Shown here: piece by piece, positions 2,449-18,946 of the stretch
Position numbering within the stretch: position 1 is the stretch's first letter
Layout: each line of letters starts with the position of its first letter
Virus record (IMG/VR): IMGVR_UViG_3300017565_000001
Location: 333,741-397,740 of that record
DNA from: a virus
Taxonomy: Duplodnaviria; Heunggongvirae; Uroviricota; Caudoviricetes
Direction: 5' to 3' (one strand)
Length of the DNA: 64,000 nucleotides
Position numbers and translations under genes: made by a program
Notes under the pieces: generated by a model
Told to the model about the DNA's origin: nothing
What the model saw: only the letters and a program-made list of their open reading frames with translations
Database searches by the model: none

Positions 2449-3768
2449 ATGGAACTCACCCTAGCGACATTCCTGGGTATCGCCCTTGGAATAATTTCTG
2501 GCATATTGCCTGGCATCGGATCAGCCAGCATCATGCTTACCTTCTACATGATCCTGATCGCTTTTGATCCCTTGAATGCAATGGTCTGTTATCTGGCCCT
2601 TGTAATCAGTAGTCAATACGTGGCGAGTCTCACCGCAATTTACACCGGTATTCCCGGAGCCGAAAGTTCATTCCCTACAGCAAAAGAAAGCCATAATCTC
2701 ATCAGCATGGGATTGACGCAAACTGCCGTCGCTCAGAACGCTCTCGCGTCTGTAGTGGGCAATAGTGTGGGTATGGTTCTTTTGATCTTGTTCATCCCCC
2801 TCGCAACCAAGATCCTTGGGATCTTTGGAGCAGCCCTACAGCTGACGATCATCATGGCTTCAGTACTCGTTGTGATCCTCACTACTGAACGTCGCTTGGC
2901 TGCCCTTATATCAATTCTACTCGCTTTCTCACTTATGTATTTGGGGCCAAACGCGCACACCTTTCAAGTGATTGATCTGGGGATGAATTTTCTGAGTGGT
3001 GGCCTGTCATGGGTAGCACTCACAATGGGAGCCATTATCGGACATGCGATGAACTCCATGAAAGGATACCAGAAAGTACAAATCAACACCCAAGGGGTTA
3101 TGGGTTTCAACCTAGCCATGCAGTCACTCAAGAATAAATGGGGTGCGTTGATGCGTGGATCATTTGTGGGATTCTTCGTGGGTCTAGTTCCCGGCCTAAG
3201 CTATATCTTGAGTTCAACGGTTTGCTATCAAGTTGAACAAAAGATTGGACAATCCAAGAAACTCAATGATAAGGATCGAGTTCTCAGCAGTATCATGAGT
3301 TCAGATGCAGCGCATTGTTCAGGCACTCTTGCAATGCTTCTTCCCTTGTTGGCTTTTGGTGTGCCAATTACTGCGAGTGAGGGGGTGATTTATAACATCA
3401 TCACTCTGTCAACAACCACCAAAGATTTACTGGCAAGTATCTACGATAATTGGTTTGTCATCGCACTTGTCATATTATTCGTGAATATGATTTCCATGTT
3501 CACAGCATGGAAATTAGGTAGCAAACTCGTCTCAGTACTCATGTTGCCACGTATGTTCTTGATGTCTTTGATTCTGATCATCAGTCTCCTAGCAGTCATT
3601 TACATCGCTTCAATGACCGGCACAATTTGGCTGTCGGTGGCCACATTTGTCCTGATAGGACTTGTGTTCTTTGTAACACGGATGAACCCGCTACCGTTCA
3701 TCTTCGGAGTCCTTGTCTTTAACCTGTTGCAGTCACTCATAGTGAGTGTCAGCCAACTCTACTTTTGA
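2449..3768 (+). CDS. tctA: tripartite tricarboxylate transporter large permease, TctA family
   Basis: Very hydrophobic; GIISGILPGIG repeated as GFFVGLVPGLS, SQYVASLTAIYTGIPG..SS, LLPLLAFGVP are TctA hallmarks; the ORF is open from 2356 but 2449 is the likely start. Confidence 0.85.
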   Translation: MELTLATFLGIALGIISGILPGIGSASIMLTFYMILIAFDPLNAMVCYLALVISSQYVASLTAIYTGIPGAESSFPTAKESHNLISMGLTQTAVAQNALASVVGNSVGMVLLILFIPLATKILGIFGAALQLTIIMASVLVVILTTERRLAALISILLAFSLMYLGPNAHTFQVIDLGMNFLSGGLSWVALTMGAIIGHAMNSMKGYQKVQINTQGVMGFNLAMQSLKNKWGALMRGSFVGFFVGLVPGLSYILSSTVCYQVEQKIGQSKKLNDKDRVLSSIMSSDAAHCSGTLAMLLPLLAFGVPITASEGVIYNIITLSTTTKDLLASIYDNWFVIALVILFVNMISMFTAWKLGSKLVSVLMLPRMFLMSLILIISLLAVIYIASMTGTIWLSVATFVLIGLVFFVTRMNPLPFIFGVLVFNLLQSLIVSVSQLYF

Positions 3769-3772
3769 TTAT

Positions 3773-4657
3773 ATGAACATTTCTAAATTTTTCGCATCAG
3801 CTTTTGCTGCTCTGATTCTGTCGGCATCTGCCGTAGCTCAACCCACAGTAAACGTACTTCGTTTGGCTCCCCCAGGGGCCGGAACGGCAGCATGGGCGGA
3901 AGCTATTTCTCAAACACTGACTGAGAACGGCTATACGACCAATATTCTGGGTTTTAAGAATTGCCAAGAAGGTGCAAAGTGGCTGAAGGATAATCCCAAG
4001 GAGCCAGTCGTAGCGATGAACTTTAGCGACCCGTTCTTGTTGAATATCGCCGAACCGTCCAATCCTGCCGGTTGCGGGTTTCCAGTAAATGAACAGTCCC
4101 TAGTGGCCGTTGCTGGTAAGTGGTTCCACTTTATTTGTGGCCACGCAGATGCCGGTGGTCTGAAGGGTTTGCTGGCAAGTGATGGCGCAAAGGTTGGTTC
4201 TTGGAACAGCCCAGTACAAATGAAGATCGTTCAAGATCAATTGACTGATATTGGCGTTAAGAACTTCAAGGTCATCGGCTATGCGGCTGGTAAAGATCAA
4301 CTCCAGGCGTTCGTTTCTGGTGATACACAATACATCATCCTGAGTTCCGAATCGTTGGCTAAAGGTCTCCCAAATGCTGAATGTTTCGCAACTTCAGCAG
4401 AACCCGCCATCGCTGCCGGTATGAACCGCACGTCATATTCCGAACTGAATCCACAAGTACGTCACCAAGATAGCGGCCTTTGGCCCATCATTGTTGGCTA
4501 CAACGTTGATATGACGAAGGTTCGAGAAATCCTGGGTGCTTCTGGCAATCACGGCGTTCTGCAACAATCCCTCAGCAAGAATTATATCCCGGTGTTTGAT
4601 TCAATCGAAACTCAACTCCGTGATATCAATAAGCGAGCTCAAGGCATCAAACAATGA
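3773..4657 (+). CDS. tctC: periplasmic substrate-binding protein, divergent TctC/Bug family
   Basis: Signal peptide (FAALILSASAVA-Q), PPGAGT..A motif, GY.AG...LQAFVSGD motif, position right after tctA. Confidence 0.7.
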   Translation: MNISKFFASAFAALILSASAVAQPTVNVLRLAPPGAGTAAWAEAISQTLTENGYTTNILGFKNCQEGAKWLKDNPKEPVVAMNFSDPFLLNIAEPSNPAGCGFPVNEQSLVAVAGKWFHFICGHADAGGLKGLLASDGAKVGSWNSPVQMKIVQDQLTDIGVKNFKVIGYAAGKDQLQAFVSGDTQYIILSSESLAKGLPNAECFATSAEPAIAAGMNRTSYSELNPQVRHQDSGLWPIIVGYNVDMTKVREILGASGNHGVLQQSLSKNYIPVFDSIETQLRDINKRAQGIKQ

Positions 4658-5754
4658 AGCATTATTACCGCATCGGGGACGAAAAATACATCAACGCCAT
4701 TGAGGCGTGGAGTCGCATTCGTTCCTTACAGGCAGTCAATCAACTGACTACCTTCGAACTAGTTCTCGAAGCCGGTAAGCTTCAGCATTATGACTGGCAA
4801 CAATCCACCACGAAAACGATCGAAAGTCTAGAAGAAGAGTATGCGACTCGTATTCGTGGTGAATACCAATATGTGCGGTTGCTGTATAGCGGAGGGTCGG
4901 ACAGTTACTCAGTAGCTGACGCCTTCTTGCGGAGCGGTAACCCCATAGACGAATTCATTTTGTATGAATGGCAGACTATGGAAAATGTCTGCATTGACGC
5001 TGCCAACAATACCGCAATGAAGATCCGTTGGCTTAAGGATATGCATGCCAAATATGGTCTTGATTGCGGCAAGATCTCAGTCATAACAATAGACCAGAAA
5101 GTTCACGAACGCCACTTCCAAAAGGATTGGTTTCTGAAGTCTGCTGGTCATGCTGGAACTGAAAGCTTCAATGTCAACCACATGGCTGACATGATCGATT
5201 TGTGCCCTCTTCCACCTGGTGTTACCAACTATGTGGATTTGATGGGTTTTGAGAAACCACGATTGTTTGCTGATGACAATATGATTTGGTTTCAAATGAA
5301 CGACAAGAATACTATGTATGGCGCCAGGAAGCAGGAGGAACCTCACATTTGGTTCTATTTGTCCGGCGATGCTCCTGAGTTGATTCGAGCACAATGCCAA
5401 GGCGCTATCCGGGTAGCCAAGATGTTATTCCCCAGAATGCCTTTGAAGGATGCACTGCACAAATTGCAGAACGACAAGAATTACTACCACGAATGGTGTT
5501 ATTCAGTTGGGCGCCGCACAAGCAAGTTTCAGAATTCTTTCGTGTTGCTGGCAAAGAACGTCGGTCAATCAGCAAGTATGAACAATGGTCGATACCTTCA
5601 CATCGATCAATATGCTGGAGAACGGGCTTCTGCGTGGAAAGCATATGAAGAATACGTGGATGTAGTGAAGGATTTGGGCCAGGGTTCAATCGTACCTGGT
5701 ATCAAAACTCAGAAATTCGTATTGGAGAAGAACTATGTTCACAGTCATTGGTAA
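4654..5754 (+). CDS. PP-loop (adenine nucleotide alpha-hydrolase-like) protein
   Basis: LLYSGGSDS PP-loop motif, GFEKP motif; ATGA overlap with tctC. Confidence 0.65.
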   Translation: MKHYYRIGDEKYINAIEAWSRIRSLQAVNQLTTFELVLEAGKLQHYDWQQSTTKTIESLEEEYATRIRGEYQYVRLLYSGGSDSYSVADAFLRSGNPIDEFILYEWQTMENVCIDAANNTAMKIRWLKDMHAKYGLDCGKISVITIDQKVHERHFQKDWFLKSAGHAGTESFNVNHMADMIDLCPLPPGVTNYVDLMGFEKPRLFADDNMIWFQMNDKNTMYGARKQEEPHIWFYLSGDAPELIRAQCQGAIRVAKMLFPRMPLKDALHKLQNDKNYYHEWCYSVGRRTSKFQNSFVLLAKNVGQSASMNNGRYLHIDQYAGERASAWKAYEEYVDVVKDLGQGSIVPGIKTQKFVLEKNYVHSHW

Positions 5755-6412
5755 TATAAGAAACCTGCCATCTAGAGAAGAGCTTATGGCAGGAAGTGGA
5801 GGATTCACACCCAAAGAACAATTGGCAGCCGATCCCAAATTCGTGCCTCTTAGGTACAGTTCACAGCAACAGGCCCTAGACATAATTTCGTCTAAGACTG
5901 GTGCCGATACGAAGACTGCGAATTTTGCCAATGCTCCTGGATTTCAACGAGTTGGTTTGTCTGATGAAGTTGTCAATCGACTGGCTGAAATATTGAAGCT
6001 CACCAAACCTCAAGCTAGACTGCAAGTGTTGGAACCTGGCAATGTGACAATGATGCATCTGGATGATTTGGATCTGGGTTACATAAATCCCATTGAGGAA
6101 TCTCTAAAGACTATCACATTTACCGATCAGGAACGAGAGCAGTTTCGTGATGATGTGCGCTCAGCCACCAGGTATTTGATCATGTTGGAAGACTGGCAAT
6201 GGGGACAAGGAATGATGTTTCACGACAAAACGCTGACCGGTTGGAAAGCGGGTGACATCATTTATTGGGATTGGCCAACTGTCGCACATTCAACATTCAA
6301 TACTAGCTTTTGGCCTCGAGGTTTGATTCGCATTACTGGTCTTCAAACTGATGGTTCTAGAAAAATAAACGAATGGGCGCTAAACGGCGGCCGCATATTG
6401 GTTGAATATTAA
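5735..6412 (+). CDS. putative cupin / 2OG-Fe(II) oxygenase-like protein
   Basis: LEPG..TMMHLD (HxD) ... WKAGDII.WDW...HSTFN..R..I.ITG pattern typical of jelly-roll Fe(II) oxygenases. Confidence 0.55.
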   Translation: MFTVIGNIRNLPSREELMAGSGGFTPKEQLAADPKFVPLRYSSQQQALDIISSKTGADTKTANFANAPGFQRVGLSDEVVNRLAEILKLTKPQARLQVLEPGNVTMMHLDDLDLGYINPIEESLKTITFTDQEREQFRDDVRSATRYLIMLEDWQWGQGMMFHDKTLTGWKAGDIIYWDWPTVAHSTFNTSFWPRGLIRITGLQTDGSRKINEWALNGGRILVEY

Positions 6413-7389
6413 TGGCAAAAGTATTGGTGACTGGAAGCAGTGGGTTCATCGGGCACAATGTCGTGAATCAGTTAAATGGTCATACCGTATATGGTCTCGA
6501 CAACTGTGACTCATATGCTAGTCTTAATCAATTCGAACTCAACTCATTGATTTGTGAACGCATGGATTCCATACGTGATACTGGGGTTGATTTTCAAGAT
6601 CTGTATCAAGACATCAGGGAACCTTTTGAGGATGAGCACGGTCCACTTCTGGGGCATTTCAACATTCATCCTGAAATCGTTATTCACCTAGCCAGTTTTC
6701 CACGCCAATACGAAGTACAGTTGGCGCCAGCCCAAGCCAGTGCTACAATGGTGGGCGGCCTTTTGAATGTTTTAGAGGCGGTGAGACAAACGTGTAAGCG
6801 ATTTGTCTTTGTGAGTTCGAGCATGGTTTATGGTGACTTTCAAAACCTCACTACCGAAAGTCACCCTCTAAACCCCAATACTCTGTATGGTATCCTTAAG
6901 CAAACAGGTGAACAGATAGTGTGTGATTTCTGTTCCAAGAATGGCATCGAATATACCATCATCCGGCCCAGTGCCGTTTATGGTGAACGCGATGTTTCCA
7001 ATAGACTGGTTGGAAAGTTTTTGACAGCGGCTCGCCGTGGAGAAACCCTATTGGTCAAGGGCCCCGAGGAAGTGTTGGATTTCACCCATGTGAGTGATGT
7101 GGCTCGAGGTATGGTTTTGGCAGCGTTCTCACCAAACGCTGCCAATCGTGCCTACAATTTGACTAGATCAAGCGAAACTCCTCGAACCATTCAAGACGCC
7201 GCAAATCTTGCTGTATCTCTTATGGGAAACGGCAACATCCAGGTTCTAAATCGTGATGCTTCCTTCCCATCCAGAGGGACTTTATCTATTCAGCAAGCCA
7301 GGGATGACTTCGGATATAACCCAACCATTGACATCGAACAAGGTTTCGCACAATATGCAAAATGGATTTCTGGACGTTCCGTTCAATAA
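6412..7389 (+). CDS. NAD-dependent nucleotide-sugar epimerase/dehydratase
   Basis: VLVTGSSGFIG, HLAS, SSSMVYG, YGILK (YxxxK), RPSAVYG, DFTHVSD. Confidence 0.92.
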   Translation: MAKVLVTGSSGFIGHNVVNQLNGHTVYGLDNCDSYASLNQFELNSLICERMDSIRDTGVDFQDLYQDIREPFEDEHGPLLGHFNIHPEIVIHLASFPRQYEVQLAPAQASATMVGGLLNVLEAVRQTCKRFVFVSSSMVYGDFQNLTTESHPLNPNTLYGILKQTGEQIVCDFCSKNGIEYTIIRPSAVYGERDVSNRLVGKFLTAARRGETLLVKGPEEVLDFTHVSDVARGMVLAAFSPNAANRAYNLTRSSETPRTIQDAANLAVSLMGNGNIQVLNRDASFPSRGTLSIQQARDDFGYNPTIDIEQGFAQYAKWISGRSVQ

Positions 7390-8443
7390 CGTCAAGCTGC
7401 AGAATCAATCCGTAAAAGAGGAACTGATGGAAGCCATCAGTTCTGTTCTGGATTCAAATCAAGTGCTTGATGGTCCTCACAGAGAAGAACTTGAGGCAAA
7501 TATTGCTCAGATCACTGGACGTAAACACGCCATTGTCACCCATAGTGGCACTGCTGCACTCGGTATCATATCTAAGGCGTTTTATCAACCAAATCGATAT
7601 GTGGATTTGCCAGCAGTTTCGTTCATTGCCACCGCAAACGCTTTCAAGAATGATGGCTGGCGTCTTTCCTTCTACAACAATCTAAATGTGAGTGTCATAT
7701 CACAAGACGTGGCATTAATCGTTGGTGTTGGGCTATTTGGGAAACCTTGCTATATGTCCACCATGGGAGTTCCCTATGTGGAAGACGCCTGTCAAAGTTG
7801 GTTAGCATCACCCTGGATGCAACCGTATAGCTCCAGGCACACACAAGTCATAAGCTTCGATCCCACAAAAAATATAGCCGGGTTGGGTAATGGTGGCGCA
7901 ATAGCTACTGATGACGAAATATTGTCGAGGTTCGTCCGTAAGTACATCAATCACGGAAAAGGTCCTGATGGTTTCGGTATGGTTGGGATGAATCTAAGAA
8001 TGTCAGAACTGGAGTGCGCAACGCTGAATGTGAAGCTCAAACATATGGAAAGCTGGCAACAGAGGCGTAGAGCTATAGCCATGTTTTACTTGAATGAATT
8101 CGCAAATACGCCACAAGTTGAAACAGTTATGAAACACCAAGACATTTGGAATCACGGTCTACAGAAGTTCGTGATATCCGTTCCTGGTGAAGATCGTGAT
8201 GCGCTTGTTGCTTATTTGAGCAATCGTGGAATTGAATGCAAGATTCATTACGAGAAAACCATGTTTGAATATGGATTCTTGAATGACTTTGAAGATCATG
8301 ATGCTTATTATTTGCGTATTCACGACGAATTGAAAACAACAATGGCCGGATGGTTGAGTCTGCCGTTTTATCCCGAATTGACGGCAGACCAGATGCATCA
8401 TGTCGTCAACAGCGTTGACGCATACTTTTCAGAAAAGAATTGA
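7355..8443 (+). CDS. DegT/DnrJ/EryC1/StrS PLP-dependent sugar aminotransferase
   Basis: SGTAAL, SFIATANA, EDACQS, SFDPTKN..G.GNGGAI (catalytic Lys), N.RMSE, LSLPFYPEL. Confidence 0.92.
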   Translation: MQNGFLDVPFNNVKLQNQSVKEELMEAISSVLDSNQVLDGPHREELEANIAQITGRKHAIVTHSGTAALGIISKAFYQPNRYVDLPAVSFIATANAFKNDGWRLSFYNNLNVSVISQDVALIVGVGLFGKPCYMSTMGVPYVEDACQSWLASPWMQPYSSRHTQVISFDPTKNIAGLGNGGAIATDDEILSRFVRKYINHGKGPDGFGMVGMNLRMSELECATLNVKLKHMESWQQRRRAIAMFYLNEFANTPQVETVMKHQDIWNHGLQKFVISVPGEDRDALVAYLSNRGIECKIHYEKTMFEYGFLNDFEDHDAYYLRIHDELKTTMAGWLSLPFYPELTADQMHHVVNSVDAYFSEKN

Positions 8444-9438
8444 TCCAACCACTTCCATTCGTAGCTTGCTAGAAGCTTCGTATAATCCCCACCAACAGAC
8501 GTGAAGTACAGGAGCGCATCGTGCGCTCCTTTTTGCGACCAATCACCGTATAGGGCGTGGGAAGGGGCCAGCCAGCGTTCTAGGCGGTAACTTGCTTCCT
8601 GTTCTCCACGCTCACTGTAAAGTTTCAACTTCAATGCTTCCCTGAAGGCCGTGCGCCAAGCATGTTGGGGGCTGGTATTAAACACGGCCGTACCAGACAA
8701 TCGATTTACTTCTTCGTATGGTTGCGCCAACGTGAAATCAATCTCATCACCTGGGTTTACGAGCACTAGCTTCTTGCAATAGGCAATCACAGCTTGATGG
8801 CCGTAAACCAATCCATTTACTGGATTTTCAGCCATGAACACATAGTGGCGATCTTCGTATTTTGCAGGGGTCCAGCTAAAGTCAAAGTCAGGATAGATTT
8901 TGATCTTCGCAAATACAGCAAAGAAGTGTTCTGTATTGCTTGCTTGTGCCGCAGTCTTATAGGCTGCCGATCGTCCAGTCACACCATCAACCCTAACTAC
9001 TCTATTGGGAATATGATCGGTGACTTCTTGTAGAAGAGACCAATGCTCTTCAGCGGTTGATTCCCCGTTTGAAATGAATACGATATCCAGGGGATCATTC
9101 TTAACAAAAGACGAACGTTGATTGATGACACGAACCTCGTTATTGAATATAGCTCGTTCATCTGTTATTTCCAATTTCTTGGGGATTAGGGCCACTCCCA
9201 AGGATTCATTGGAGTTTCGGCAACAATGCACCAAGTCCTGATCCCATGGTTCCACCGTGTAATCAAAATTGAAATTGTCCAAGACCAGCATGTCATCCCA
9301 CACCACCCAATAGTATTTGGTGAACGATTTGCGGCGGGCTTCAGCTATTGAACCAACAGCTTTGATTCGTGGAAATCTATTTTTGAGTTTCTGGTATTGG
9401 TCAGAAGGATTATTGGTTATCAGGAATATGTCGTACAT
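8398..9438 (-). CDS. glycosyltransferase-like protein with tandem GT-A-like segments
   Basis: Paralogous to 15015..15935 (DIVFIS..E..AEEHW, RV.GV.G..AA..AA..S.T..F, NPVNGLVYG, AWRTAFRE..KL); extra N-terminal segment with WVVWDD. Confidence 0.65.
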   Translation of the reverse strand: MYDIFLITNNPSDQYQKLKNRFPRIKAVGSIAEARRKSFTKYYWVVWDDMLVLDNFNFDYTVEPWDQDLVHCCRNSNESLGVALIPKKLEITDERAIFNNEVRVINQRSSFVKNDPLDIVFISNGESTAEEHWSLLQEVTDHIPNRVVRVDGVTGRSAAYKTAAQASNTEHFFAVFAKIKIYPDFDFSWTPAKYEDRHYVFMAENPVNGLVYGHQAVIAYCKKLVLVNPGDEIDFTLAQPYEEVNRLSGTAVFNTSPQHAWRTAFREALKLKLYSERGEQEASYRLERWLAPSHALYGDWSQKGAHDALLYFTSVGGDYTKLLASYEWKWLDQFFSEKYASTLLTT

Positions 9439-9440
9439 GA

Positions 9441-10346
9441 TCAGAATTGCATGTTCTTTTTCCACTGCGATTTGACGACAGTGGTCTGGCCCACTTTACC
9501 ACATGCTCGTTGACATGTGACATGGGGATCAGTCGTTAGTCGATTGATGATAGTATCTATCACCCGATCTTTCGGAATATCCCGTATGCCGTGGTCCGAC
9601 TCAATATCAGCCTTGGTAGCGATATAACAACACGGGTACCATTCACCTAACGAATTCACGAACACACTTCGATCTCGTAGGGCTTCGCATTCTATTCCTT
9701 GAATTTCTGGTTCCTTGTACTCACTAACCTTCTTGAGCCAAAAGACCGTTTGATGAACTTGCCTTTCGGTTTCTTTCAATCGGAACCACAGGAAGCCCAT
9801 AGAGCGCGCCAAAGCCTCTGCTTCATCGACCTGATGTTTGTTATGCTCAAACACCAAATAATCCCAGTGAGCGTGTCCTCCCGCGTCTATGAATGCTTGG
9901 GCGTTAGTCATTACCTTCGACCATACGGCATCACGGCGATAGATGTGATTAGTATCTTCCAATCCATCTATAGACCAGATGACAAAGTCCAGGGGTTGAT
10001 TTAAGATCCCAGCCAATTCCCGCCACCAGGCCGCGTTCCGTAAACTACCATTCGTATTCATCCCAAGCTCGATGTCTGGGTTACATTCACGAAAATACCG
10101 GTAGATATCCAGACAATCTTTAGCCATAGCAGGTTCACCAAAGTTGCCACACATGAACATTTTGCGAAGACCACGAATGAACTCTGGACTGAAGGTTTGC
10201 TTTGCTCTTTCCAGAGTCATTTCACCATGACGTAGTGTTTCGTTTGGCAAATCACCTTCAGTTCTGCGGCATTGAGGGCACCGTAGGTTGCAATTAGTGG
10301 TGACTTCAAGATGTAAAACATCCGCTTCGTGTTGTAATGATGTCAT
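9441..10346 (-). CDS. radical SAM enzyme with C-terminal twitch-like Cys cluster
   Basis: CNLRCPQC, CGNFGEP, TNGS, SIDG; C-terminal C...G..YPCC...CQRAC. Confidence 0.9.
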   Translation of the reverse strand: MTSLQHEADVLHLEVTTNCNLRCPQCRRTEGDLPNETLRHGEMTLERAKQTFSPEFIRGLRKMFMCGNFGEPAMAKDCLDIYRYFRECNPDIELGMNTNGSLRNAAWWRELAGILNQPLDFVIWSIDGLEDTNHIYRRDAVWSKVMTNAQAFIDAGGHAHWDYLVFEHNKHQVDEAEALARSMGFLWFRLKETERQVHQTVFWLKKVSEYKEPEIQGIECEALRDRSVFVNSLGEWYPCCYIATKADIESDHGIRDIPKDRVIDTIINRLTTDPHVTCQRACGKVGQTTVVKSQWKKNMQF

Positions 10347-11056
10347 AGAGTATAAGGTTTGGTTGGTACCACAAAACTACTCGAATACAACCCAATGCCA
10401 TTCAGAATACGCATGTCGTCCAAACAACCATCAAAATACCGTTGATTGGTAAAGAAGCCACCCACATAACAGGAACCACCAAAGCTATCAAAGTTCTGAA
10501 CTTGATTGAGTGTGGTATCCAGAACTCCATTTACGAAGATCATGAATACGTTGTTGATGCGAGTTATCGCCACGTGCGTCCAAGTTTGTGGCGATATTGT
10601 GATGTTACCCAGGAGAAGTACCGAGTTGGTGATGTAGCTGTATAGGCGAATCTTACCCAGGTTGTTTATTCCCACCATGAGAAAATTCCCCGCTGCCGAA
10701 GCTCCCATGGTCAGGATCGGACTATGGACTACGCTTGCACTGACATATTGATTCAACCAACAAAAACATTCAATGGTAAAATCGTTTGTCCCCAATACCA
10801 ACTTATTGATCTTCGGGACATTCACATATTGCTGATTGGTGGACGATGAGCCGCGCAGGTCCAAGGAACCACCAAACTTAGAAAGAGTGTTGGTTATTTT
10901 GGCGTTCCCTACTATCGAGATGGGGCCATCTGGAGAGGTTGCAACTATTTGAGTAGAACCTTCTTCACCATCAAAATGAGACGCGAATCCCACTTGGTCT
11001 CGATACTGTGATTCGGGTGAAGATGAAGCAGACAAAAGCTTAGTAGTTAAATTCAT
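10343..11056 (-). CDS. LamG/concanavalin A-like lectin-domain protein (putative virion adhesin)
   Basis: HFDG.EGST, DFTIECF, WTHVAITR..N...IFVNG, G.LDDMRI, F..PT.P. Confidence 0.8.
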   Translation of the reverse strand: MNLTTKLLSASSSPESQYRDQVGFASHFDGEEGSTQIVATSPDGPISIVGNAKITNTLSKFGGSLDLRGSSSTNQQYVNVPKINKLVLGTNDFTIECFCWLNQYVSASVVHSPILTMGASAAGNFLMVGINNLGKIRLYSYITNSVLLLGNITISPQTWTHVAITRINNVFMIFVNGVLDTTLNQVQNFDSFGGSCYVGGFFTNQRYFDGCLDDMRILNGIGLYSSSFVVPTKPYTL

Positions 11057-11093: not shown

Positions 11094-11258
11094 TTACCTA
11101 TCAAGTTTGCGAATATCTACCTGGAGTTCTGTCAGGGTAAAGAGACCCTTATGACTCTCCATGAATGTACCAGTTACCAATTCCCATAAGTCTACCTGGA
11201 GATTCCCCTCATCATCAGGAATTGATCCCCCAATCCCATTGATATCCTTGAACATCAT
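11094..11258 (-). CDS. small acidic hypothetical peptide (54 aa), not in ORF track
   Basis: Translated by hand: MMFKDINGIGGSIPDDEGNLQVDLWELVTGTFMESHKGLFTLTELQVDIRKLDR; fills the gap between two lectin genes; weak SD. Confidence 0.35.
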   Translation of the reverse strand: MMFKDINGIGGSIPDDEGNLQVDLWELVTGTFMESHKGLFTLTELQVDIRKLDR

Positions 11259-11302
11259 CCGTAAAGAATGATCCCCTAGATACTATCACACACCATTAGA
11301 AC

Positions 11303-11329
11303 AAAGAGGAACATTTTCTGTTCCTCTTT
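11303..11329. terminator. terminator-like hairpin
   Basis: AAAGAGGAACA/TGTTCCTCTTT inverted repeat just past the stop of 11332..12030. Confidence 0.65.
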
Positions 11330-11331
11330 CT

Positions 11332-12030
11332 TTATTTCCATGTCAATGGATCGAAGGTTTGTGTCCTTGCCACTAGTTCATATCTGAACTGTGATATCAA
11401 TCCCCTGTAGCCATACCTAGCTGAATTACCACCCGTGTAGCCACTTCTATCACCGATACCACCAATATACATGTTTAGATTCGACGGATTTGCTCCTTGT
11501 GCTGGACCGAATGGTTTACCATCAATAAATCCCGTTATAGTTCCAGTTGAGCGTTCGTATGCCATTGCCACATGACGCCAGGTACCTACTGGTGATGCAG
11601 TGTCGCTATAGGCTCCTGATACTGAGCCACCAACAGATCCTGTCTTGGGGTACGTTGCCGTTCCTGTTCCACTCATAACCACGTAATTGAGATTCAGACC
11701 GCTAAATGGTCCAATCTGCAGAATCCAGGCTTGTGGTGGTGAATTGCCATATTGCGGCTGATAACTGGTTGGATTTATGAAGAAGCCAACCGTGAACGAA
11801 TTCAATCCCAGGGTTGGTGCCAGATCGTATTGCAAGCAGGATGCGCCTGTATCACTCCACAGGTTGCAAGAGTCACCATTCGGTGCGATTGTCGCTGATG
11901 TTGCAGTACCAGAACCAGCCCAAGTGGTTCTGGGAGTCATTGATGAAAATTGAATAATACCACGAGGACCATCTTGCTCAGTCTCACCGTCGTATGCAGC
12001 AAACAACAGTTTGTATACGATAGGGATCAT
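11332..12030 (-). CDS. LamG/ConA-like lectin-domain protein
   Basis: SFTVGFFINP, WRHVAM.Y...G.I..FIDG, G.ISQFR; Gly/Ser/Thr-rich. Confidence 0.7.
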   Translation of the reverse strand: MIPIVYKLLFAAYDGETEQDGPRGIIQFSSMTPRTTWAGSGTATSATIAPNGDSCNLWSDTGASCLQYDLAPTLGLNSFTVGFFINPTSYQPQYGNSPPQAWILQIGPFSGLNLNYVVMSGTGTATYPKTGSVGGSVSGAYSDTASPVGTWRHVAMAYERSTGTITGFIDGKPFGPAQGANPSNLNMYIGGIGDRSGYTGGNSARYGYRGLISQFRYELVARTQTFDPLTWK

Positions 12031-12053
12031 AAAGGTGTGCTCAAAACCTTTAT

Positions 12054-13592
12054 TTACTTTGATGGTGGTACAAAGTCCTGTGAACCTGGATTTGTCTTAC
12101 TCTTGTCTAGGATCCATCCTTCCTGTTTGGCTCTTTCTTTCAATTCTCTTTCGTGGGGCCATTCCTCGACCCTGCCCTTCTCCAGCTTGATAGGAATAAG
12201 CTTGGTATCGGGAATGCTGTCAAACCATTCAACCAGTTGTGGGAATGTAGCCCTGAAGTCCTTGCCCCTACGAGCGTCGTATTGCTTGAAGAAACTGCGG
12301 AAGTCGCGCTCTCTAGATTTCAGGCTGCTGGTATGAGCATGACCCTCAGTGACTTCTCTCAGGTATTGGATGAGGCGAACGATACCATCGTGTTCGTGTT
12401 GTTGAAGAATTCCCCTACCCTTCAAATGTTCAGGTTGGTAATCCCAATTGTGCTTCAACCAGGTTTCAATGTGGTCGGCGCGTTCCAACCTAATATGTTC
12501 TGGTAGTGTCACTGCACTCTGAAAACTAGGGAATCTCAGAATATTGAAGCTCATGCTGCAATGATGCATGCCGTATTGTTCTTTGATTCTATTCAATGAA
12601 TCCATAAAGTCCGTGATGCTAAACAGGCAAAGACTGTTTACGGTCATCATCACGTGTGTGGCAGCAAAATTACCATCCTGAATGCACGTTTTTAGGTTGT
12701 GCAACCATTCATCCCAGTGCAAGCCATCCCTGATATATTCAGCATGAGCTCCGAATGATTCATTGCTAGTGTATAGATGAATATCCTTGAACGAATGACT
12801 GGCAGTAACGAGTCGCTTCAACAGTTTGGCGTTAACACCCAGATTGCTATTCAGGGCGAGACGAACCTTACATTCAGGATGTTCTTGCCACCAATCCATA
12901 AGCTTCCAGAAGTCTTGACTCATGGTAGCCTCACCACCAGTAATTCGGAGCTCAGTCAGACTATGCTGCAACTCTGCTTCCCACCACTGCCAGAACGCCG
13001 CCAAATAGGGATTATCGGTATTCCGGATACCATAGGGTTGTGCCCAGGAACCGTCCTGTTGGAAAGCACCACCACCATCACTCACTAGATCCTGGTACGG
13101 ACCGTTCTTCTTGACATCAGCCATCCAGGTGGTAGAGAAGCTGGGATTACAATACGAACAAGCGAAATTGCAGTTGGCGTCGAAGGCAATTTCCAAAGTC
13201 TTCAAGTCAACGTCACCCGTGGCACCATGAACTTCGGCAGCTTGTGCCAACTCTTCGTCGGTGTAAATGACACTCTTGAACACACGATCACTGACTTGAT
13301 CCTTACCCAAGTCTTCAATCTTCCAGCAGTAATCGCACTCTTCGGGACGTTCACCCCTGAGCATTTGTTCCCTGACCATCTTCTTGTATGAAGTATTGTG
13401 AATCGCCTTGTAATTGGCCAACACTTCTTCAACTGAAATCTTGTGAGCAGGTGGGTGATGACAGCTTGCAGTCGTACCACTACCCAGCCAGATCGTTGCG
13501 TTATACCACTTTGCACCACAGAATGACGGGCTGATGGGATCAACTACTCGATCCCTGTATTCAACGTATGACTCAGTTTGAATTTTTGGCAC
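12054..13592 (-). CDS. radical SAM enzyme with N-terminal twitch-like Fe-S domain
   Basis: CNFACSYC, ITGGEA; N-terminal FCGAKW...SCHHP...ECDYCW. Confidence 0.9.
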   Translation of the reverse strand: MPKIQTESYVEYRDRVVDPISPSFCGAKWYNATIWLGSGTTASCHHPPAHKISVEEVLANYKAIHNTSYKKMVREQMLRGERPEECDYCWKIEDLGKDQVSDRVFKSVIYTDEELAQAAEVHGATGDVDLKTLEIAFDANCNFACSYCNPSFSTTWMADVKKNGPYQDLVSDGGGAFQQDGSWAQPYGIRNTDNPYLAAFWQWWEAELQHSLTELRITGGEATMSQDFWKLMDWWQEHPECKVRLALNSNLGVNAKLLKRLVTASHSFKDIHLYTSNESFGAHAEYIRDGLHWDEWLHNLKTCIQDGNFAATHVMMTVNSLCLFSITDFMDSLNRIKEQYGMHHCSMSFNILRFPSFQSAVTLPEHIRLERADHIETWLKHNWDYQPEHLKGRGILQQHEHDGIVRLIQYLREVTEGHAHTSSLKSRERDFRSFFKQYDARRGKDFRATFPQLVEWFDSIPDTKLIPIKLEKGRVEEWPHERELKERAKQEGWILDKSKTNPGSQDFVPPSK

Positions 13593-15015
13593 GATACACC
13601 TCCTTGCATGACTCCAAGAATTCCTTGTATTCAGGGAAAGTCTTCAGGAAGTCTGTTCCGCGACGACGATCATATTCGGGATAGAACGCACCAATGTCAT
13701 TCATATGATTGAACATTTGGTCCTGGGGAATTTCTTCCATCATGTATTCACCCAAGCGTTCAATCTGATCAATCTCCTCCAAGTAAAATCTGCCCTTGGA
13801 ATCTGGACTGTTGTGACGCATCAACCCAGTCATGTAGGTTTTGATTTCCTGCAAGTAACGTTCCTTGATTTCCCGGGGTGCGACCCTGACATCCTGAAAC
13901 GGTGGCCAACGCAGATAATTGATCATCATTGGCAACCTGTTCATCGCATCGTCGGGGTTGAATTCGGTCCGCATGGTCCAAATGTCTTGCATGAAATCCT
14001 TGAACGTACTCAGGCTCAACATGTTGAATGTGATCATGAAGTTAAGTCTCGACCATTCACCAGTTTGCGACAAGAACTTGCGGCAGTTGGCAATGAATGA
14101 ATCGTAGTTCATACCGAAGCGAATGTATTCTGCGGCAGGCCCAGCTGCTTCACAACTGGTGAACACATCAAAAGCCTTGATGTTTGGTGCGATCTCGTTA
14201 TACAGCTTGATGAACTTATCCATGAGCTCATCAGGTACCTGGAGATTCGTATTAATGGCCAGGGTAAGATCAGCTCGTGGATTGTCTCTGATCTCTTCAA
14301 GAACGCGCCATGTATGCTTACTCAACAGGGGCTCACCACCCGTGATGCGGAATGTATGCAGGCTCTTGTAAAGATCAGGCCACCATTCCCAGAAAGCATC
14401 CACGTATGGGTTCTCTTCCCTGTTGGGAATAGGCATTTTGCCTATCTTTTCCAGCCACTGAATGTTACCCACTGAATAAGTGGTGCCCTGATATGGACCG
14501 TATTGTTTGACCTCTTCCATCCACTTGGACGAAATGTCAGGCGTGCAATACATGCACTTCAGATTGCAGGTGTTGTCAAATGCGACTTCCAGGTAGGACG
14601 GATTGACGTCCTGGCCTTCCTTTGATTCGATGACTTTCTGCAGGTTGGGATATGCCCAACCCATGTCAGCACTCTTGTATGTGCGATCACTGAAGTGATT
14701 ACCAGGAAGGTCTTCCACTTTCCAACAATAACTGCATTCAGGAGGACGTTCACCACTCAACATCTTCTTGCGAACTTCGACCTTGTATTCGGTGTTGTGC
14801 AGAGCTGATGGCTTACGTTTTATCTCGCTGATGGGGATCTTGTGCGTGGATGGGTGGTGACAAGAATGGGTGTGACCGTTCATCAAATAAACGGTACTTT
14901 GCAGCCACTTTGCCAAACACATTGTGGGTGAGCCACTTTGCTTTTCCACATCATCCATCCGCTCAGCCATTTTTTCAATGTTGATCTGATTGGGTGACTT
15001 GGGGGTATCGGACAT
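13573..15015 (-). CDS. radical SAM enzyme with N-terminal twitch-like Fe-S domain (paralog of 12054..13592)
   Basis: CNLKCMYC, ITGGEP; N-terminal MCLAKW...SCHHP...ECSYCW; YD.RRG.DF..TFP C-terminus shared with paralog. Confidence 0.9.
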   Translation of the reverse strand: MSDTPKSPNQINIEKMAERMDDVEKQSGSPTMCLAKWLQSTVYLMNGHTHSCHHPSTHKIPISEIKRKPSALHNTEYKVEVRKKMLSGERPPECSYCWKVEDLPGNHFSDRTYKSADMGWAYPNLQKVIESKEGQDVNPSYLEVAFDNTCNLKCMYCTPDISSKWMEEVKQYGPYQGTTYSVGNIQWLEKIGKMPIPNREENPYVDAFWEWWPDLYKSLHTFRITGGEPLLSKHTWRVLEEIRDNPRADLTLAINTNLQVPDELMDKFIKLYNEIAPNIKAFDVFTSCEAAGPAAEYIRFGMNYDSFIANCRKFLSQTGEWSRLNFMITFNMLSLSTFKDFMQDIWTMRTEFNPDDAMNRLPMMINYLRWPPFQDVRVAPREIKERYLQEIKTYMTGLMRHNSPDSKGRFYLEEIDQIERLGEYMMEEIPQDQMFNHMNDIGAFYPEYDRRRGTDFLKTFPEYKEFLESCKEVYRAKNSN

Positions 15016-15935
15016 TAGATGTTCCTGAGTTTGAAAGTTTCGCGGAAGAACGCACTAGTATCCGCGTCTAGTGTTGGTACACTGATCTTGGTGGTTTCCT
15101 TGATGTAAGCACCAAGTTTCTTGATTTCTTCTTCAACAAAGAAGAGTGCATGGTCTTCTGTTCGTTGCTTGCCCATATTGGGCAGATAGATCTGATGAGA
15201 CACTTCAGCCCAGTATTGGTTGAACCAGTCATAATCACGGATCACGGAGAAGTCCCATGTGGCGTCACACATCTTGCACCATGCCAAACGAGTGCCGTAA
15301 ATAGCCCAGAGACCATGCTCCACATCAGCACCAACTGACGACCAGATGCGTAGGTTACGCAAATTTACGCCGTGTAGTTGCGTCTTCATAAGTTCGGGTT
15401 TGATGCGCTGGCCCCTATCTAGGGCCAATTTGACACCCTCTCGGAACCCCACACGAAACGCCTGGTATGGGGAACCGTTGTTCCAGACTTCACTGAATGC
15501 CTTGTGAATACCCTTGTAGTTTTCATCCCAACAGAAATCCACGGCCTGTCCATCTTCAGACAGTTCATGGCTACGCATATTCAGGGCAAATTCTTTGGAC
15601 CACAATTTCAGGCCACCATTACCGTACATCAAACCATTCATCATGTTGATGCCGTTCCAACAGAAGCTCTTGTTGCGATCCAGGGTATCGTCTAATTCGA
15701 TTGTTTCGTCGAAGAATTCTGGCAACACAATGTTGTCAGCATCGACTGTGATGAACCACGGAGTTTCGCTTTGTTCCGCGCAAGCTCTATGAGCTGCGTC
15801 AAAGCCCTTTACGCCATGGACTCGTTTAGCCCAAGGCGCCTTGTCAAGTAAATCAGCCCAATGCTTTTCGGCATTGGGCTCGTCGTAACTCAAAAAGAAA
15901 ATATCAAATTCACTGATGCCGTAAGTCTTTTTCAT
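15015..15935 (-). CDS. putative GT-A glycosyltransferase
   Basis: DIFFLSYDEPNA, GVKGFDAAHRACA, WFITVDAD (DxD), YGNGGLKLW. Confidence 0.7.
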   Translation of the reverse strand: MKKTYGISEFDIFFLSYDEPNAEKHWADLLDKAPWAKRVHGVKGFDAAHRACAEQSETPWFITVDADNIVLPEFFDETIELDDTLDRNKSFCWNGINMMNGLMYGNGGLKLWSKEFALNMRSHELSEDGQAVDFCWDENYKGIHKAFSEVWNNGSPYQAFRVGFREGVKLALDRGQRIKPELMKTQLHGVNLRNLRIWSSVGADVEHGLWAIYGTRLAWCKMCDATWDFSVIRDYDWFNQYWAEVSHQIYLPNMGKQRTEDHALFFVEEEIKKLGAYIKETTKISVPTLDADTSAFFRETFKLRNI

Positions 15936-16849
15936 TCTTGTTTTCGTATGAAGAGCATCTGATCAGCAATCGGGAACCCCGACACGCCAAACTTTGCTCC
16001 TGCTTTCTTCTTGACCTTGGTTGTCAGACCACCTTTCTCGATCAATTCGTTGACATCGTAGTCGATCGTGTCAACAAAGATCATGGGGTCACCGGCCTTA
16101 GTCAAGAACACTGACGGCTTGGAACTTTCTGGCGTGTACAGCTGGGGCTCACCAACAACCTTGAGCTCAAGTGTGTTGTTATTTATGAGATGATACACTA
16201 CCACTCCTTCAAAGTCTTCTGGTACCTGAGTTGCTTGTTTGAAGACAGTCAATTTGTTCATATGCCCAGTTCTTACATGGGCGGTCATCCAGTCTGCATT
16301 CCGAATCACCAATTGATAGTTACGGAACACCTTGATAGTGCTCACCGCATAATCACTGATTTGGTTCTTGAATTGGTAACGAACTGAACCTCGTTCCACC
16401 AACTGCTTGACATTGATCTTGAATTCACCCAAGACCATAGACGGATCCTTTTGCTTATGCAGAATGAAGCGGAGTTCCTGTTCAGTGATATTCACCAATG
16501 GCACACCGACAAATTTCTGAGGAATTGATACTTCAAAAGTGTTGCTCTTCAGGTAAAGGGCGACCGTGATTGTTGGGACGTTTGAATCGCCAGTTGAATC
16601 CTGGGGGATTGCGATGACTGTGCCGGCATCACTTGGAACGGAATCCAAAACATTCTGTTGAAGGTTGAAAACACCATCCCCAGTTTCAACAACAAACCAC
16701 TCATCAACGCTATATTCAGCAGTGATGAACTTCAGAGCTACTTCCTCATCCACGATATGGAAATCGTAATCACCAAATTCTTCTTGAGGGGCTGGGGCGA
16801 CTGCTTTGATGGCACCTTGATTGTCATGGTAAATGTAGAATGAAGTCAT
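15932..16849 (-). CDS. hypothetical protein with internal domain duplication
   Basis: Operon-coupled ORF; F.L.K..DP......I.V..L.E.G occurs twice. Confidence 0.7.
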   Translation of the reverse strand: MTSFYIYHDNQGAIKAVAPAPQEEFGDYDFHIVDEEVALKFITAEYSVDEWFVVETGDGVFNLQQNVLDSVPSDAGTVIAIPQDSTGDSNVPTITVALYLKSNTFEVSIPQKFVGVPLVNITEQELRFILHKQKDPSMVLGEFKINVKQLVERGSVRYQFKNQISDYAVSTIKVFRNYQLVIRNADWMTAHVRTGHMNKLTVFKQATQVPEDFEGVVVYHLINNNTLELKVVGEPQLYTPESSKPSVFLTKAGDPMIFVDTIDYDVNELIEKGGLTTKVKKKAGAKFGVSGFPIADQMLFIRKQE

Positions 16850-17718
16850 AGTCCTAGTTTCTCCTCATAGGTGGCAATCATATCGTCTGTAAGGAATTCT
16901 TTGATATGATAGTGGAGTGGCGCAATTTGGCGACAACGTCCGATCTTTAGTTCCAGATCTTCTGTGAAATAAACGCCGATGTGTTTTGTCCAATCCTCTG
17001 TAATTGATTTATCGTCCCAATTTTGCAGTTTGGATTTCATGTGAACAAAATGTGGGAACTTTCTAACCGTATTCGTACACTGATCATCCGCATCGAGCAA
17101 TCGCATAGCAAGGGCAAATACCACATCTGTACTAACCTCTGCTGGACGTGGCTCATCAGTAAATTCGTAGCGGAATTTTTCCCAGTTCTGGTAGATGATT
17201 TCGGCCATATCAAACAGTTCTTTGGCCATATCGCTTGACTTGAAAAACATGAATGCCGTGTAAACATTTGACAGCTTGTTTGCCGTAAATGTCTTTCGGT
17301 AAAAGTCACTGGTGATTTCTTCACCCCTGAACGTCAATGCTGTTGTGGCAGCCCATACGTCCTGAAGCTCCAACGTATCCCACCATGCATCGATGTTCTG
17401 CAGGAAAAGCATGTCACAATCCAGCTTGATTGTTTGCTCATACGGAGTCATGTGATAAGCCTTCCATTCATTCTGAAGCTTCCATGACGCATCCTCGGCC
17501 GCATCGCCCCATGGAATTTCAATCACTTCATCAAACACCTTCCGGTATTTCTCAGGCACTTCTTGGCCAGGCGTGATGCCTACTGCCAAGTATGGAACTT
17601 CGACCTGGGTGGCTTTCAGGCTAAGGGCCAGTCCATATGCCAACCGCAAGTAATCGTATGAACCATTTTGTGCGAAGGTGAAGAACCCACGTTTACGTTT
17701 GAAATCTCGTTGACTCAT
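16846..17718 (-). CDS. putative GT-A (GT8-like) glycosyltransferase
   Basis: RGF..FA.N...DY.RLA..LALSLK, FDEVIEI, TPYEQTIKLDCD (DxD), STDVVFALA, HYHIK. Confidence 0.7.
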   Translation of the reverse strand: MSQRDFKRKRGFFTFAQNGSYDYLRLAYGLALSLKATQVEVPYLAVGITPGQEVPEKYRKVFDEVIEIPWGDAAEDASWKLQNEWKAYHMTPYEQTIKLDCDMLFLQNIDAWWDTLELQDVWAATTALTFRGEEITSDFYRKTFTANKLSNVYTAFMFFKSSDMAKELFDMAEIIYQNWEKFRYEFTDEPRPAEVSTDVVFALAMRLLDADDQCTNTVRKFPHFVHMKSKLQNWDDKSITEDWTKHIGVYFTEDLELKIGRCRQIAPLHYHIKEFLTDDMIATYEEKLGL

Positions 17719-18602
17719 TTTCTATACAACTCAATCAGTTTATCCGCATGGCGGAGGATTGCATATTTGTTCATTGCGTGAACGGTGACGCCCTTTACTT
17801 TGCTCAACAGGAAGCGCCATGATTCGTGTTGATCTTGCGCCAAGAATGTCAGTTCATTCCGGCCCACTTCCATAATATCATCCACATCAAAACTACTCAG
17901 GATTTTGCTTTGAGGGAATGGCTTAAACTCGTCATTCTCCAGGAACCCATTCAACATGTGGATGGCAATACTAAACACGTAATCGTTACGATAAAGCTTG
18001 CCTGGAAACTCATAGACGTACTGATAATATTCGTAATTGGATTTAATTTGCTCAACTAGGTCGAACAGAATTTGTGCTCGTTCACTCTTACGGAAATATA
18101 CCATGGTAGCCCAATACATGGGGATGGACGTGCTATCAAGTCGGCGTTCTGAATCCTTGGGAGGAGTATGAAGCAAAGTCAATGCATCTTTGTTGATGAG
18201 GACTTCTTCGTCATTTCCCCAAACCAAATCAAACATACCGTCTTGCACCAGAACGTCACTGTCCAGAATGATGGTTTCATCGTAAGGCGTCAGTTCGTAT
18301 GCTGTGCTGCGAGTCCCGTTATGCCAAGTCAGATGCTTTACGGTGCTCTTCGTATCCAGGAATTGACGTTGTTTGGATTGACGCTTGAATTCGTATCCAA
18401 TTACTTTGATGTGATCGAAAGCTTGTTTGATTAACTCATCACCCAGACTACTTTGCATCCAATCAAGAGTTCCTTGATCCGTCACTAGACAGACGCTGTT
18501 TTCCCTGAGATTTGCTTTAATCATCAGGGCGCAACAGAGTGCGATTTTGCCATAATCAACTTCTTCGTTGTTATGGGCGTAGATAAGAAATCCTCTACTC
18601 AT
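17715..18602 (-). CDS. putative GT-A (GT8-like) glycosyltransferase, paralog of 16846..17718
   Basis: RGFLIYA.N...DY.K.A, TPYDETIILDSD (DxD), RNDYVFSIA, HAMNK. Confidence 0.7.
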   Translation of the reverse strand: MSRGFLIYAHNNEEVDYGKIALCCALMIKANLRENSVCLVTDQGTLDWMQSSLGDELIKQAFDHIKVIGYEFKRQSKQRQFLDTKSTVKHLTWHNGTRSTAYELTPYDETIILDSDVLVQDGMFDLVWGNDEEVLINKDALTLLHTPPKDSERRLDSTSIPMYWATMVYFRKSERAQILFDLVEQIKSNYEYYQYVYEFPGKLYRNDYVFSIAIHMLNGFLENDEFKPFPQSKILSSFDVDDIMEVGRNELTFLAQDQHESWRFLLSKVKGVTVHAMNKYAILRHADKLIELYRK

Positions 18603-18946
18603 TTTCCAGTCGCTTGCTCAACAGTGCGAGCCTTACGAATCTTTTCGTATTCGGCCAAATACTCATTGGTTGCTTCAAAATATTTGCTGATGACTTCATC
18701 CAGGAAGTCCTGCAAGTTGCTGATAAGAACCGGGTTTCCCCTAGCATCAATCAGAACGGCTTCGGTCTGTTCTCGACGGACTAGAACGTCCACAAACGCA
18801 ATCAACTGATCACTTACCGTAAAGATGCCACCATTGTGGGCGTAAGTGAGCAGATTTTCCATGCGAAGCTTGAGGTTCTGCTTCTGATTGTAAACCGTAA
18901 CCTTGTAGTTGGAATGGGCAAGAGCCTTAGTCAAACGGTCGTCCAT
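18599..18946 (-). CDS. hypothetical protein, first gene of the GT/radical SAM operon
   Basis: GGAG SD, ATGA overlap with the next gene. Confidence 0.75.
   Translation of the reverse strand: MDDRLTKALAHSNYKVTVYNQKQNLKLRMENLLTYAHNGGIFTVSDQLIAFVDVLVRREQTEAVLIDARGNPVLISNLQDFLDEVISKYFEATNEYLAEYEKIRKARTVEQATGK

Follow-up and report, generated by a model that had tools for sequence, protein, structure and literature searches.

The capsid and tail glycosyltransferases (GTs) of mycobacteriophages are soluble, virus-encoded GT-A enzymes whose genes lie beside structural genes, and A64R of PBCV-1 is likewise a soluble viral GT-A enzyme encoded beside structural genes. In pelagimyophages and cyanomyophages a host recognition cluster (HRC) has been described, a hypervariable island in the structural module that holds fibre genes, GT8-type GTs, radical S-adenosylmethionine (SAM) cassettes and transport or hydroxylase genes, and whose inferred role lies in host recognition or at the host surface (PMC7029224). 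The subject of this work is a fibre-linked island in a 64,000-nucleotide stretch of DNA (the window), which comprises bases 333,741-397,740 of the single-contig viral record IMGVR_UViG_3300017565_000001 (424,529 bp). It is tentatively read here as assembling and editing a glycan, with the phage fibre proteins as the favoured acceptor. A first-pass annotation had taken the island for a single 16.5-kb supercluster and for a candidate undescribed system. Neither claim holds: a conserved five-gene core is joined by variable accessories that are not co-inherited as one, and comparable fibre-linked GT8/radical SAM islands (PMC7029224) and jumbo-phage sugar clusters (PMC7824862) are on record.

A conserved core behind the tail-fibre genes

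The record has direct terminal repeats, is rated complete and represents an uncultured jumbo myovirus. Its PHROG matches (baseplate wedge, hub/lysozyme, a 3102-aa virion protein, portal and major head protein) are those of a T4-like/Rak2-like jumbo myovirus. No nucleotide match was found in 50,697 GenBank phage records. The nearest isolate is Ralstonia phage RsoM2USA, also the only isolate with the island core at the protein level: when the GenBank phage collection was queried with Y1, G8a or TwA (three island proteins introduced below), RsoM2USA alone was returned. A compact version of the island is present in this culturable phage as ORF349-354, which comprise the core and a single radical SAM gene, with ORF355 as the fibre gene.

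The island consists of two converging gene strings, one on the plus strand (2356-8443) and one on the minus strand (8398-18946), which meet with a 46-nt overlap at 8398-8443. The plus-strand open reading frames (ORFs) are 2356/2449-3768, 3746-4657, 4654-5754, 5735-6412, 6412-7389 and 7355-8443, while the minus string runs from 18599-18946 down to 8398-9465. Junctions within the strings are mostly overlaps of 1-25 nt. Read 5' to 3', the minus strand encodes s115, G8b, G8a, X, Y1, TwA, TwB, LamG2, then a hairpin and a 276-nt spacer, LamG1, a 301-aa radical SAM protein and Y2. Beyond the cassette come the fibre genes (19057-20933), followed by the genes of the 3102-aa virion protein and the baseplate wedge. 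The island thus sits between baseplate/fibre genes and nucleotide-metabolism genes, and carries a variable accessory layer. The ORF map, the overlaps and the fibre and baseplate families all bear out the earlier description of two tightly coupled, converging operons beside these structural genes. The fibre genes and the GT-like core are as follows.

19965..20933, minus strand: f322, tail-fibre protein with an intramolecular-chaperone C-terminus (PF11962, E 7.6e-7; phrog_19602, tail fiber, E 2e-15)
19057..19965, minus strand: f302, fibre-associated beta-rich protein, directly upstream of the cassette
18599..18946, minus strand: s115, small conserved protein heading the cassette, recognised by synteny
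17715..18602, minus strand: G8b, G8a paralogue (26% identical; same profile, same DxD)
16846..17718, minus strand: G8a, GT8/glycogenin-like GT-A enzyme (profile against glycogenin)
15932..16849, minus strand: X, core protein of unknown fold, C-terminally extended in this phage (hhalign to a family of ~208 aa)
15015..15935, minus strand: Y1, member of a Pfam-less GT-A family (GT-A fold, DxD)
8398..9465, minus strand: Y2, Y1 paralogue (31% identical) with an extra N-terminal half-domain and the DxD lost

A scan of IMG/VR with the Y alignment gave at least 597 contigs, and 80 loci were fetched. Their gene order is (p212) - f322 (1-4 copies) - f302 - s115 - G8 - G8 - X - Y, with additional copies of Y, 0-7 radical SAM genes, or both, past the first Y. 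In the loci whose flank was long enough for scoring, G8 was found upstream of Y in 71/71, s115 in 62/62, f302 in 55/55 and f322 in 42/50. X was found upstream of Y in 41/76, a figure that covers BLAST-detectable copies only. Radical SAM genes are present in 33 of the 49 loci with at least 8 kb of downstream sequence. The plus-strand genes of the window occur in none of the 80 core loci.

Two closer relatives, L082 and L083 (about 60% identity), share more of the island. Their order is DHFR - ThyA - PP-loop - cupin-like - (SDR - DegT, in L083 only) - Y2 - small radical SAM - ... - TwA - Y1 - X - G8a - G8b, where L082 breaks off within X and L083 at G8b. Of the two, TwB was seen in L082 only, and neither has the TctA gene, the 303-aa protein or the LamG pair.

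The island is therefore layered, with a fixed core, a sub-clade layer and strain-level accessories. The conserved core comprises the fibre gene f302, s115, two GT8-like GT-A enzymes, X and Y, followed by 0-7 copies of radical SAM genes of the curated family NF033640. The accessory genes (PP-loop, cupin-like, SDR, DegT, LamG, TctA) are confined to close relatives or to this phage. In the synteny comparison the core proteins of the proposed supercluster do co-occur across the 80 core loci, but its plus-strand half does not. Hundreds of contigs from aquatic phages carry Y, the G8 pair, s115, X and the radical SAM family as a fixed cassette.

Some loci differ in what accompanies the cassette. A Pfam-less Rossmann methyltransferase-like family (GGWYG ... 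D.D ... INTSxEH) lies with it in 42 of the 80 loci and is not found in the window (examples: L079 10868-11914, L006 14119-14814). In the related loci a family labelled c235 had been considered a counterpart of the cupin-like protein of the window, but alignment shows an unrelated Rossmann methyltransferase-like family. In another form of the island (L006-L008, L017, L019, L022 and others) Y is present twice and radical SAM genes are missing; convergent ThyX, DUF2201 metallopeptidase/VWA and MoxR-like AAA genes follow it. The p212 protein was also compared with the RsoM2USA virion protein ORF356, and no similarity was found.

Glycosyltransferase-like enzymes and the radical SAM family

The Y family has 6,640 metagenome homologues, and no Pfam domain was found in any of the 120 listed. 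In the AlphaFold2 (AF2) model of Y1 (pLDDT 92.2) a GT-A domain at residues 4-161 is followed by a helical domain. Its fold matches reach Z 9-10 with GT2/GT-A enzymes (root-mean-square deviation 3.4-3.9 over 137-143 residues) and include PBCV-1 A64R (capsid-glycosylating, Z 9.2) and the peptide glycosyltransferases SunS and ThuS. The nucleotidyltransferases MobA and IspD reach similar fold scores, and it is therefore the DxD that suggests transferase chemistry: the VDADN motif of Y1 is conserved, with D65/D67 at 90% or more. Neither Y1 nor Y2 matched GT2 (PF00535), nor did anything else in the genome. In Y2, VFAKIK replaces VDADN in this phage, L082 and L083, a change seen in this sub-clade only; 18 Y2-type proteins of other phages retain DAD.

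A G8 profile (44 sequences) aligns with glycogenin-1 and -2 at E 1.4e-7 over positions 3-106, and D100 and D102 of its DxD are invariant. The Pfam GT8 model PF01501 gave no match at E<0.01 for G8a or G8b, nor anywhere in the genome. X matches the ~208-aa family of 44 loci (hhalign probability 98.9%, E 1.9e-17) and a 184-aa ORF of RsoM2USA (97.6%), and has no Pfam, PHROG or NCBIfam match; it is a conserved non-GT family. Four GTs had been proposed at 15015-18602. G8a, G8b and Y1 are supported, X, which was probably counted among them, is not, and a fourth GT-A paralogue is Y2 at 8398-9465. None of the cassette GTs has a hydrophobic N-terminus. Y, s115 and X have so far carried no functional annotation, and the G8 pair is only remotely glycogenin-like.

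Three radical SAM proteins are encoded in the window.

13573..15015, minus strand: TwA, NF033640 radical SAM (344.9 bits, model positions 1-398; 36% identical to TwB)
12054..13592, minus strand: TwB, NF033640 radical SAM (303.2 bits, model positions 1-397)
9441..10346, minus strand: small radical SAM protein of SPASM/twitch type, 301 aa (PF04055, E 2e-9; phrog_21308, E 1.8e-20)

TwA and TwB lie well above the 170-bit curated cut-off of NF033640 (N_Twi_rSAM, twitch domain-containing radical SAM protein). In TwA, C33/C52/C94/C97 and the CxxxCxxC cysteines C150/C154/C157 are invariant in 29 sequences; TwB has the corresponding Cys 25/44/86/89 and C141xxxC145xxC148. The auxiliary Cys domain of both is N-terminal, and bacterial paralogues match PF13186 (SPASM) at their N-termini. 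The 301-aa protein has Cys 19/23/26 and C-terminal Cys 220/239/240/278/282, and its maturase-type NCBIfam matches are all below cut-off. The first-pass annotation had named three twitch enzymes; TwA and TwB have no C-terminal twitch domain. The suggested kinship with BtrN was not upheld either. BtrN matches at E 0.086 over 39 residues only, and the fold matches of the TwA AF2 model (pLDDT 92.6) are tied at Z 12-14 between SkfB, DesII (13.3), BlsE (13.1), SuiB, MoaA and anSME, with CteB also among the top matches.

The fold of TwA consequently does not separate sugar from peptide substrates. A glycocin- or sactipeptide-type pathway could be imagined, with the radical SAM enzymes introducing cross-links or epimerised residues into a peptide or fibre protein and the GT-A enzymes attaching sugars to it, and the presence of SkfB, SuiB and CteB among the top matches of TwA, and of SunS and ThuS among those of Y1, would agree with it. 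We consider this improbable. Sugar enzymes match as well as the maturases do, s115 is structured and conserved and lacks a conserved Cys, Ser or Thr core, no conserved short ORF was found in the window (a 54-aa ORF is without relatives), and the bacterial homologues of the radical SAM proteins sit in polysaccharide clusters. As a structured protein with no Cys core, s115 was ruled out as a peptide precursor.

The bacterial homologues were searched in one genome per prokaryote species. The 246 NF033640-type homologues found are overwhelmingly from Bdellovibrionota and include members on contigs of 0.8-2.2 Mb. Y, G8 and s115 genes are missing from those bacterial contigs, save for three phage-like ones. 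A GT2 gene directly adjoins the radical SAM gene in 26 of 75 bacterial loci, and other common neighbours are GT1 fusion proteins, an ABC-2 exporter pair, a UDPGP-like gene, GNAT, a methyltransferase and further radical SAM paralogues with an N-terminal SPASM domain. This context independently ties the NF033640 family to glycan synthesis. Together with the invariant-DxD GT-A enzymes that accompany the fibre genes, it sustains the earlier view of the island as a sugar- or glycan-tailoring system.

In a FastTree phylogeny of 142 sequences phage and bacterial members are interleaved, and at least 11 label changes are forced by well-supported branches. In this tree TwA clusters with sequences from Bacteriovorax and Pseudobdellovibrio to which it is 59-60% identical. 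Branch supports are local only, and we claim neither a root nor a direction of transfer.

Two of the bacterial loci have a distinctive content. On a 2.2-Mb contig of Bdellovibrio sp. HCB2-146 (L106, 115-5835) a fibre-like, Thr/Ser-rich repeat protein of 1906 aa with a C-terminal Peptidase_S74 intramolecular-chaperone domain is encoded directly upstream of an NF033640 radical SAM gene and four GT2 genes. Fibre adjacency was seen at this one locus only and is not a general rule in Bdellovibrionota. A 917-kb contig of a Bdellovibrionia metagenome-assembled genome (L136, 493-9365) has six radical SAM paralogues in 9 kb, at least three of them with an N-terminal SPASM-type domain, beside a UDPGP-like gene and a methyltransferase.

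Accessory genes of the window

The window adds to the core a DxD-less Y paralogue and an accessory layer: TctA, a probably secreted 303-aa protein, the PP-loop and cupin-like pair, a short-chain dehydrogenase/reductase (SDR) with DegT, and LamG proteins.

2449..3768, plus strand: TctA-family permease (PF01970, E 1.2e-46 over 414 aa)
3746..4657, plus strand: 303-aa protein with a signal-peptide-like N-terminus
4654..5754, plus strand: phage-specific PP-loop ATP pyrophosphatase-like protein, 366 aa (SGGSDS motif)
5735..6412, plus strand: cupin/2-oxoglutarate-oxygenase-like protein, a lead, 225 aa (HxD...H pattern)
6412..7389, plus strand: extended SDR, nucleoside diphosphate (NDP)-sugar epimerase/oxidoreductase (PF01370, E 2.3e-36)
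7355..8443, plus strand: DegT/PseC-like sugar aminotransferase dependent on pyridoxal phosphate (PLP) (PF01041, E 2.2e-51)
10343..11056, minus strand: LamG1, LamG/ConA-like lectin-fold protein (PF13385, E 2.5e-17)
11332..12030, minus strand: LamG2, LamG/ConA-like lectin-fold protein (PF13385, E 1.8e-7)

Family searches agree with most of the names given to these genes before: the transporter (PF01970), the epimerase (PF01370), DegT (PF01041), the lectins (two LamG_3 matches) and the three radical SAM proteins (NF033640 among the families) were all recovered. The permease belongs to TctA with 159.7 bits over profile positions 2-422 of 423. Its gene occurs in this phage alone among the loci examined, is absent from L082 and L083, and has no true TctA homologue in 50,697 phage records. 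A lytic jumbo phage here carries a full-length TctA permease gene. The 303-aa protein encoded next to it had no match in Pfam, NCBIfam, PHROG or PDB-profile searches and has only 9 homologues, whose contigs equal in length those with PP-loop homologues; scans of IMG/VR and metagenomes with their alignment found nothing. A TctC identity for this protein is unsupported (no PF03401, NCBIfam or PDB-profile match), and the ORF map has no tctB-sized gene.

For the PP-loop assignment, the SGGSDS motif is invariant across 10 homologues, but no Pfam or other profile matches. The Atlas neighbours of this protein are viral-only clusters, with a distant Asn-synthase/QueC fold (TM 0.58-0.60). An IMG/VR scan with its alignment returned two loci, and a scan with the single protein none. 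The oxygenase proposed beside it is a lead that comes from the HxD..H pattern and from the Atlas, where its neighbours are viral hypothetical clusters and the nearest Pfam lead is Asp_Arg_Hydrox (27% of the members of one neighbouring cluster). The pair is kept in L082 and L083, whose cupin-like orthologues are 53% identical.

The SDR has the GSSGFIG (GxxGxxG) and Y159xxxK motifs and SSS in place of the TDE dehydratase motif. Every NCBIfam match is below cut-off (TIGR01181: 90 bits against 365). With no equivalog score and no TDE, it is not called an NDP-sugar 4,6-dehydratase and is assigned only as an extended SDR. DegT scores 175.6 bits against a PF01041 cut-off of 19.8 and has the SF-PTKN PLP-lysine motif; the PseC and DesI models match below cut-off, and no equivalog cut-off is reached. 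Both genes are present in L083 and absent from L082 and from all 80 core loci. Coupling of radical SAM and DegT enzymes after the manner of BtrN and BtrR, as had been supposed, is therefore not general.

The PHROG matches of LamG1 are LamG domains of baseplate and virion proteins. The LamG pair was not found in the 80 core loci, L082 or L083. A terminator-like hairpin (11303-11329) directly follows LamG2. Just past it, a 54-aa minus-strand ORF (11094-11258) takes up the 276-nt spacer that separates the LamG genes; none of the fetched loci contains a relative of this ORF.

Product, acceptor and comparison with known systems

From the gene content, folds, motifs, synteny and bacterial context we infer the following enzymatic steps, product and acceptor. 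The core proteins s115, G8a, G8b, X and Y1 would work in the cytoplasm during infection, drawing on NDP-sugars of the host to build a short glycan. TwA, TwB and the small radical SAM protein would then edit C-H positions of the sugars through SAM-derived radicals, by oxidation, epimerisation, deoxygenation or C-C chemistry. SDR and DegT may add a lineage-specific amino-sugar branch, the PP-loop and cupin-like pair possibly an amidated or hydroxylated substituent, and the TctA permease may bring in a carboxylate precursor. The favoured acceptors would be f302 and f322, whose genes always precede the cassette. Glycan assembly with radical editing is proposed because DxD-bearing GT-A enzymes are fixed partners of fibre genes and because the radical SAM family is tied to GTs in two unrelated genomic settings. 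The whole genome encodes no NTP_transferase (sugar-1-phosphate nucleotidylyltransferase), and lipid-carrier or flippase-type genes are missing from the island, so the host would have to supply both donors and carriers.

The absolute linkage with f302 (55/55) argues for a fibre target, as do the lack of membrane or lipid-carrier components in the island, the resemblance of G8a and G8b to glycogenin, which glycosylates a protein (itself), and the two small non-enzymatic partner proteins within the core. f302 has no PDB-profile or Pfam match. In RsoM2USA an f302-type C-terminal part and an f322-like fibre N-terminal segment are found within one ORF. The f302 family has an invariant Tyr in a near-invariant G-Y-G-Q loop near the N-terminus; as a speculation, this Tyr might be the acceptor site for the glycogenin-like enzymes.

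Other observations weigh against fibre glycosylation. Peptide maturases (SkfB, SuiB) match the TwA fold as well as sugar enzymes (DesII, BlsE) do, and radical SAM genes are missing from about a third of the loci. The ABC-2 exporters of the bacterial loci point to an exported, lipid-linked polysaccharide rather than to protein glycosylation. A terminator-like hairpin parts f302 from the cassette and lies, with a sigma70-like site (TTGAAC-17-TATCAT, 18998-18970, 9/12), between f302 and s115. Sigma70-type promoters (at least 10/12) were found in 21 of 58 relatives, mostly ~50 nt before s115 and near-consensus in many; other relatives have a TAAATA motif at this position. With such a hairpin and such promoters, the cassette need not be a late virion-assembly operon. 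The virion proteomics of RsoM2USA, which covered 10 abundant bands only, is silent on glycans (PMC8504454).

Alternatively, the cassette may modify the lipopolysaccharide (LPS) core, O-chain or another envelope glycan of the host from the cytoplasmic face, and the sigma70-type promoters before s115 in many relatives count in favour of this. Such masking of the receptor would block superinfection and keep progeny off debris, and linkage with fibre genes would follow, since receptor-binding and receptor-masking functions must match. In T5, llp adjoins the receptor-binding gene. Bacterial GT8 enzymes are mainly LPS-core transferases, the Bdellovibrionota homologues of the radical SAM proteins lie in ABC-2 exporter clusters, and phage GT clusters have been read in this way (Zaragoza-Solas et al. 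2020, PMC7029224; Iyer et al. 2021, PMC7824862). An envelope target is nevertheless judged somewhat less probable than the fibres. A membrane-anchored GT, a flippase, a polymerase and a ligase are all missing from the island, the N-termini of its GTs are not hydrophobic, and s115 and X, as small non-enzymatic core proteins, would have no obvious role; the linkage with f302, moreover, is absolute.

Thymidylate-synthase genes often border the island (ThyA here, ThyX in ~20 loci), which might hint that the GTs and radical SAM proteins decorate a modified pyrimidine of the phage DNA. This is very improbable. The single ThyA-family gene of the genome passes the thymidylate-synthase equivalog cut-offs and adjoins DHFR, no hydroxymethylase paralogue, 5-hydroxymethyluracil kinase or T4-type GT-B enzyme was seen, and the island lies within the structural module. 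The earlier statement that no acceptor for DNA glycosylation is visible is thus sustained. The thymidylate synthase itself (window 1236-2285, 349 aa) has an insertion of ~50 residues between model positions 156 and 189.

If the fibres are decorated, the modification would bear on host range, adsorption and phage stability. Taken at its fullest, fibre glycosylation would mean a radical-SAM-edited glycan on the fibres, the first known virion glycosylation system of phages that infect Gram-negative bacteria, and a family with an N-terminal SPASM domain, repeatedly exchanged with predatory Bdellovibrionota, that performs undescribed sugar chemistry; we regard this whole as doubtful. If the envelope is remodelled instead, the cassette would be a widespread superinfection-exclusion device linked to receptor-binding genes. 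On either reading the radical SAM enzymes may carry out new carbohydrate chemistry, and ORF349-354 of RsoM2USA make the question directly testable in a culturable phage.

Among described systems, the HRC resembles the present island in being variable and in combining fibre genes with GT8-like and radical SAM genes in the structural module, a likeness at the level of annotation. The HRC was described by annotation only, and neither an s115-G8-G8-X-Y core nor the NF033640 family was defined there. The N-terminal 4-Cys domain and CxxxCxxC of TwA and TwB are those of NF033640, but the name of this family says nothing of phage fibres or GT-A enzymes, and no characterised member or reaction was found for it. 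DesII, BlsE and BtrN share the radical SAM core fold (DesII Z 13.3, BlsE Z 13.1), and DesII acts after a DegT-type aminotransferase, DesI, as a DegT gene is present here. However, these matches are confined to the core, peptide maturases score equally, the island proteins have their auxiliary domain at the N-terminus, and DegT and SDR are not conserved partners. PBCV-1 A64R and the mycobacteriophage enzymes work without radical SAM tailoring and have only 10-15% sequence identity; A64R is among the fold matches of Y1 all the same. In comparison with glycogenin and the CAZy GT8 family, G8 lacks the PF01501 match and its C-terminal half is unrelated by sequence, but its N-terminal ~100 residues up to the DxD align (E 1.4e-7) and the retaining GT-A architecture is shared.

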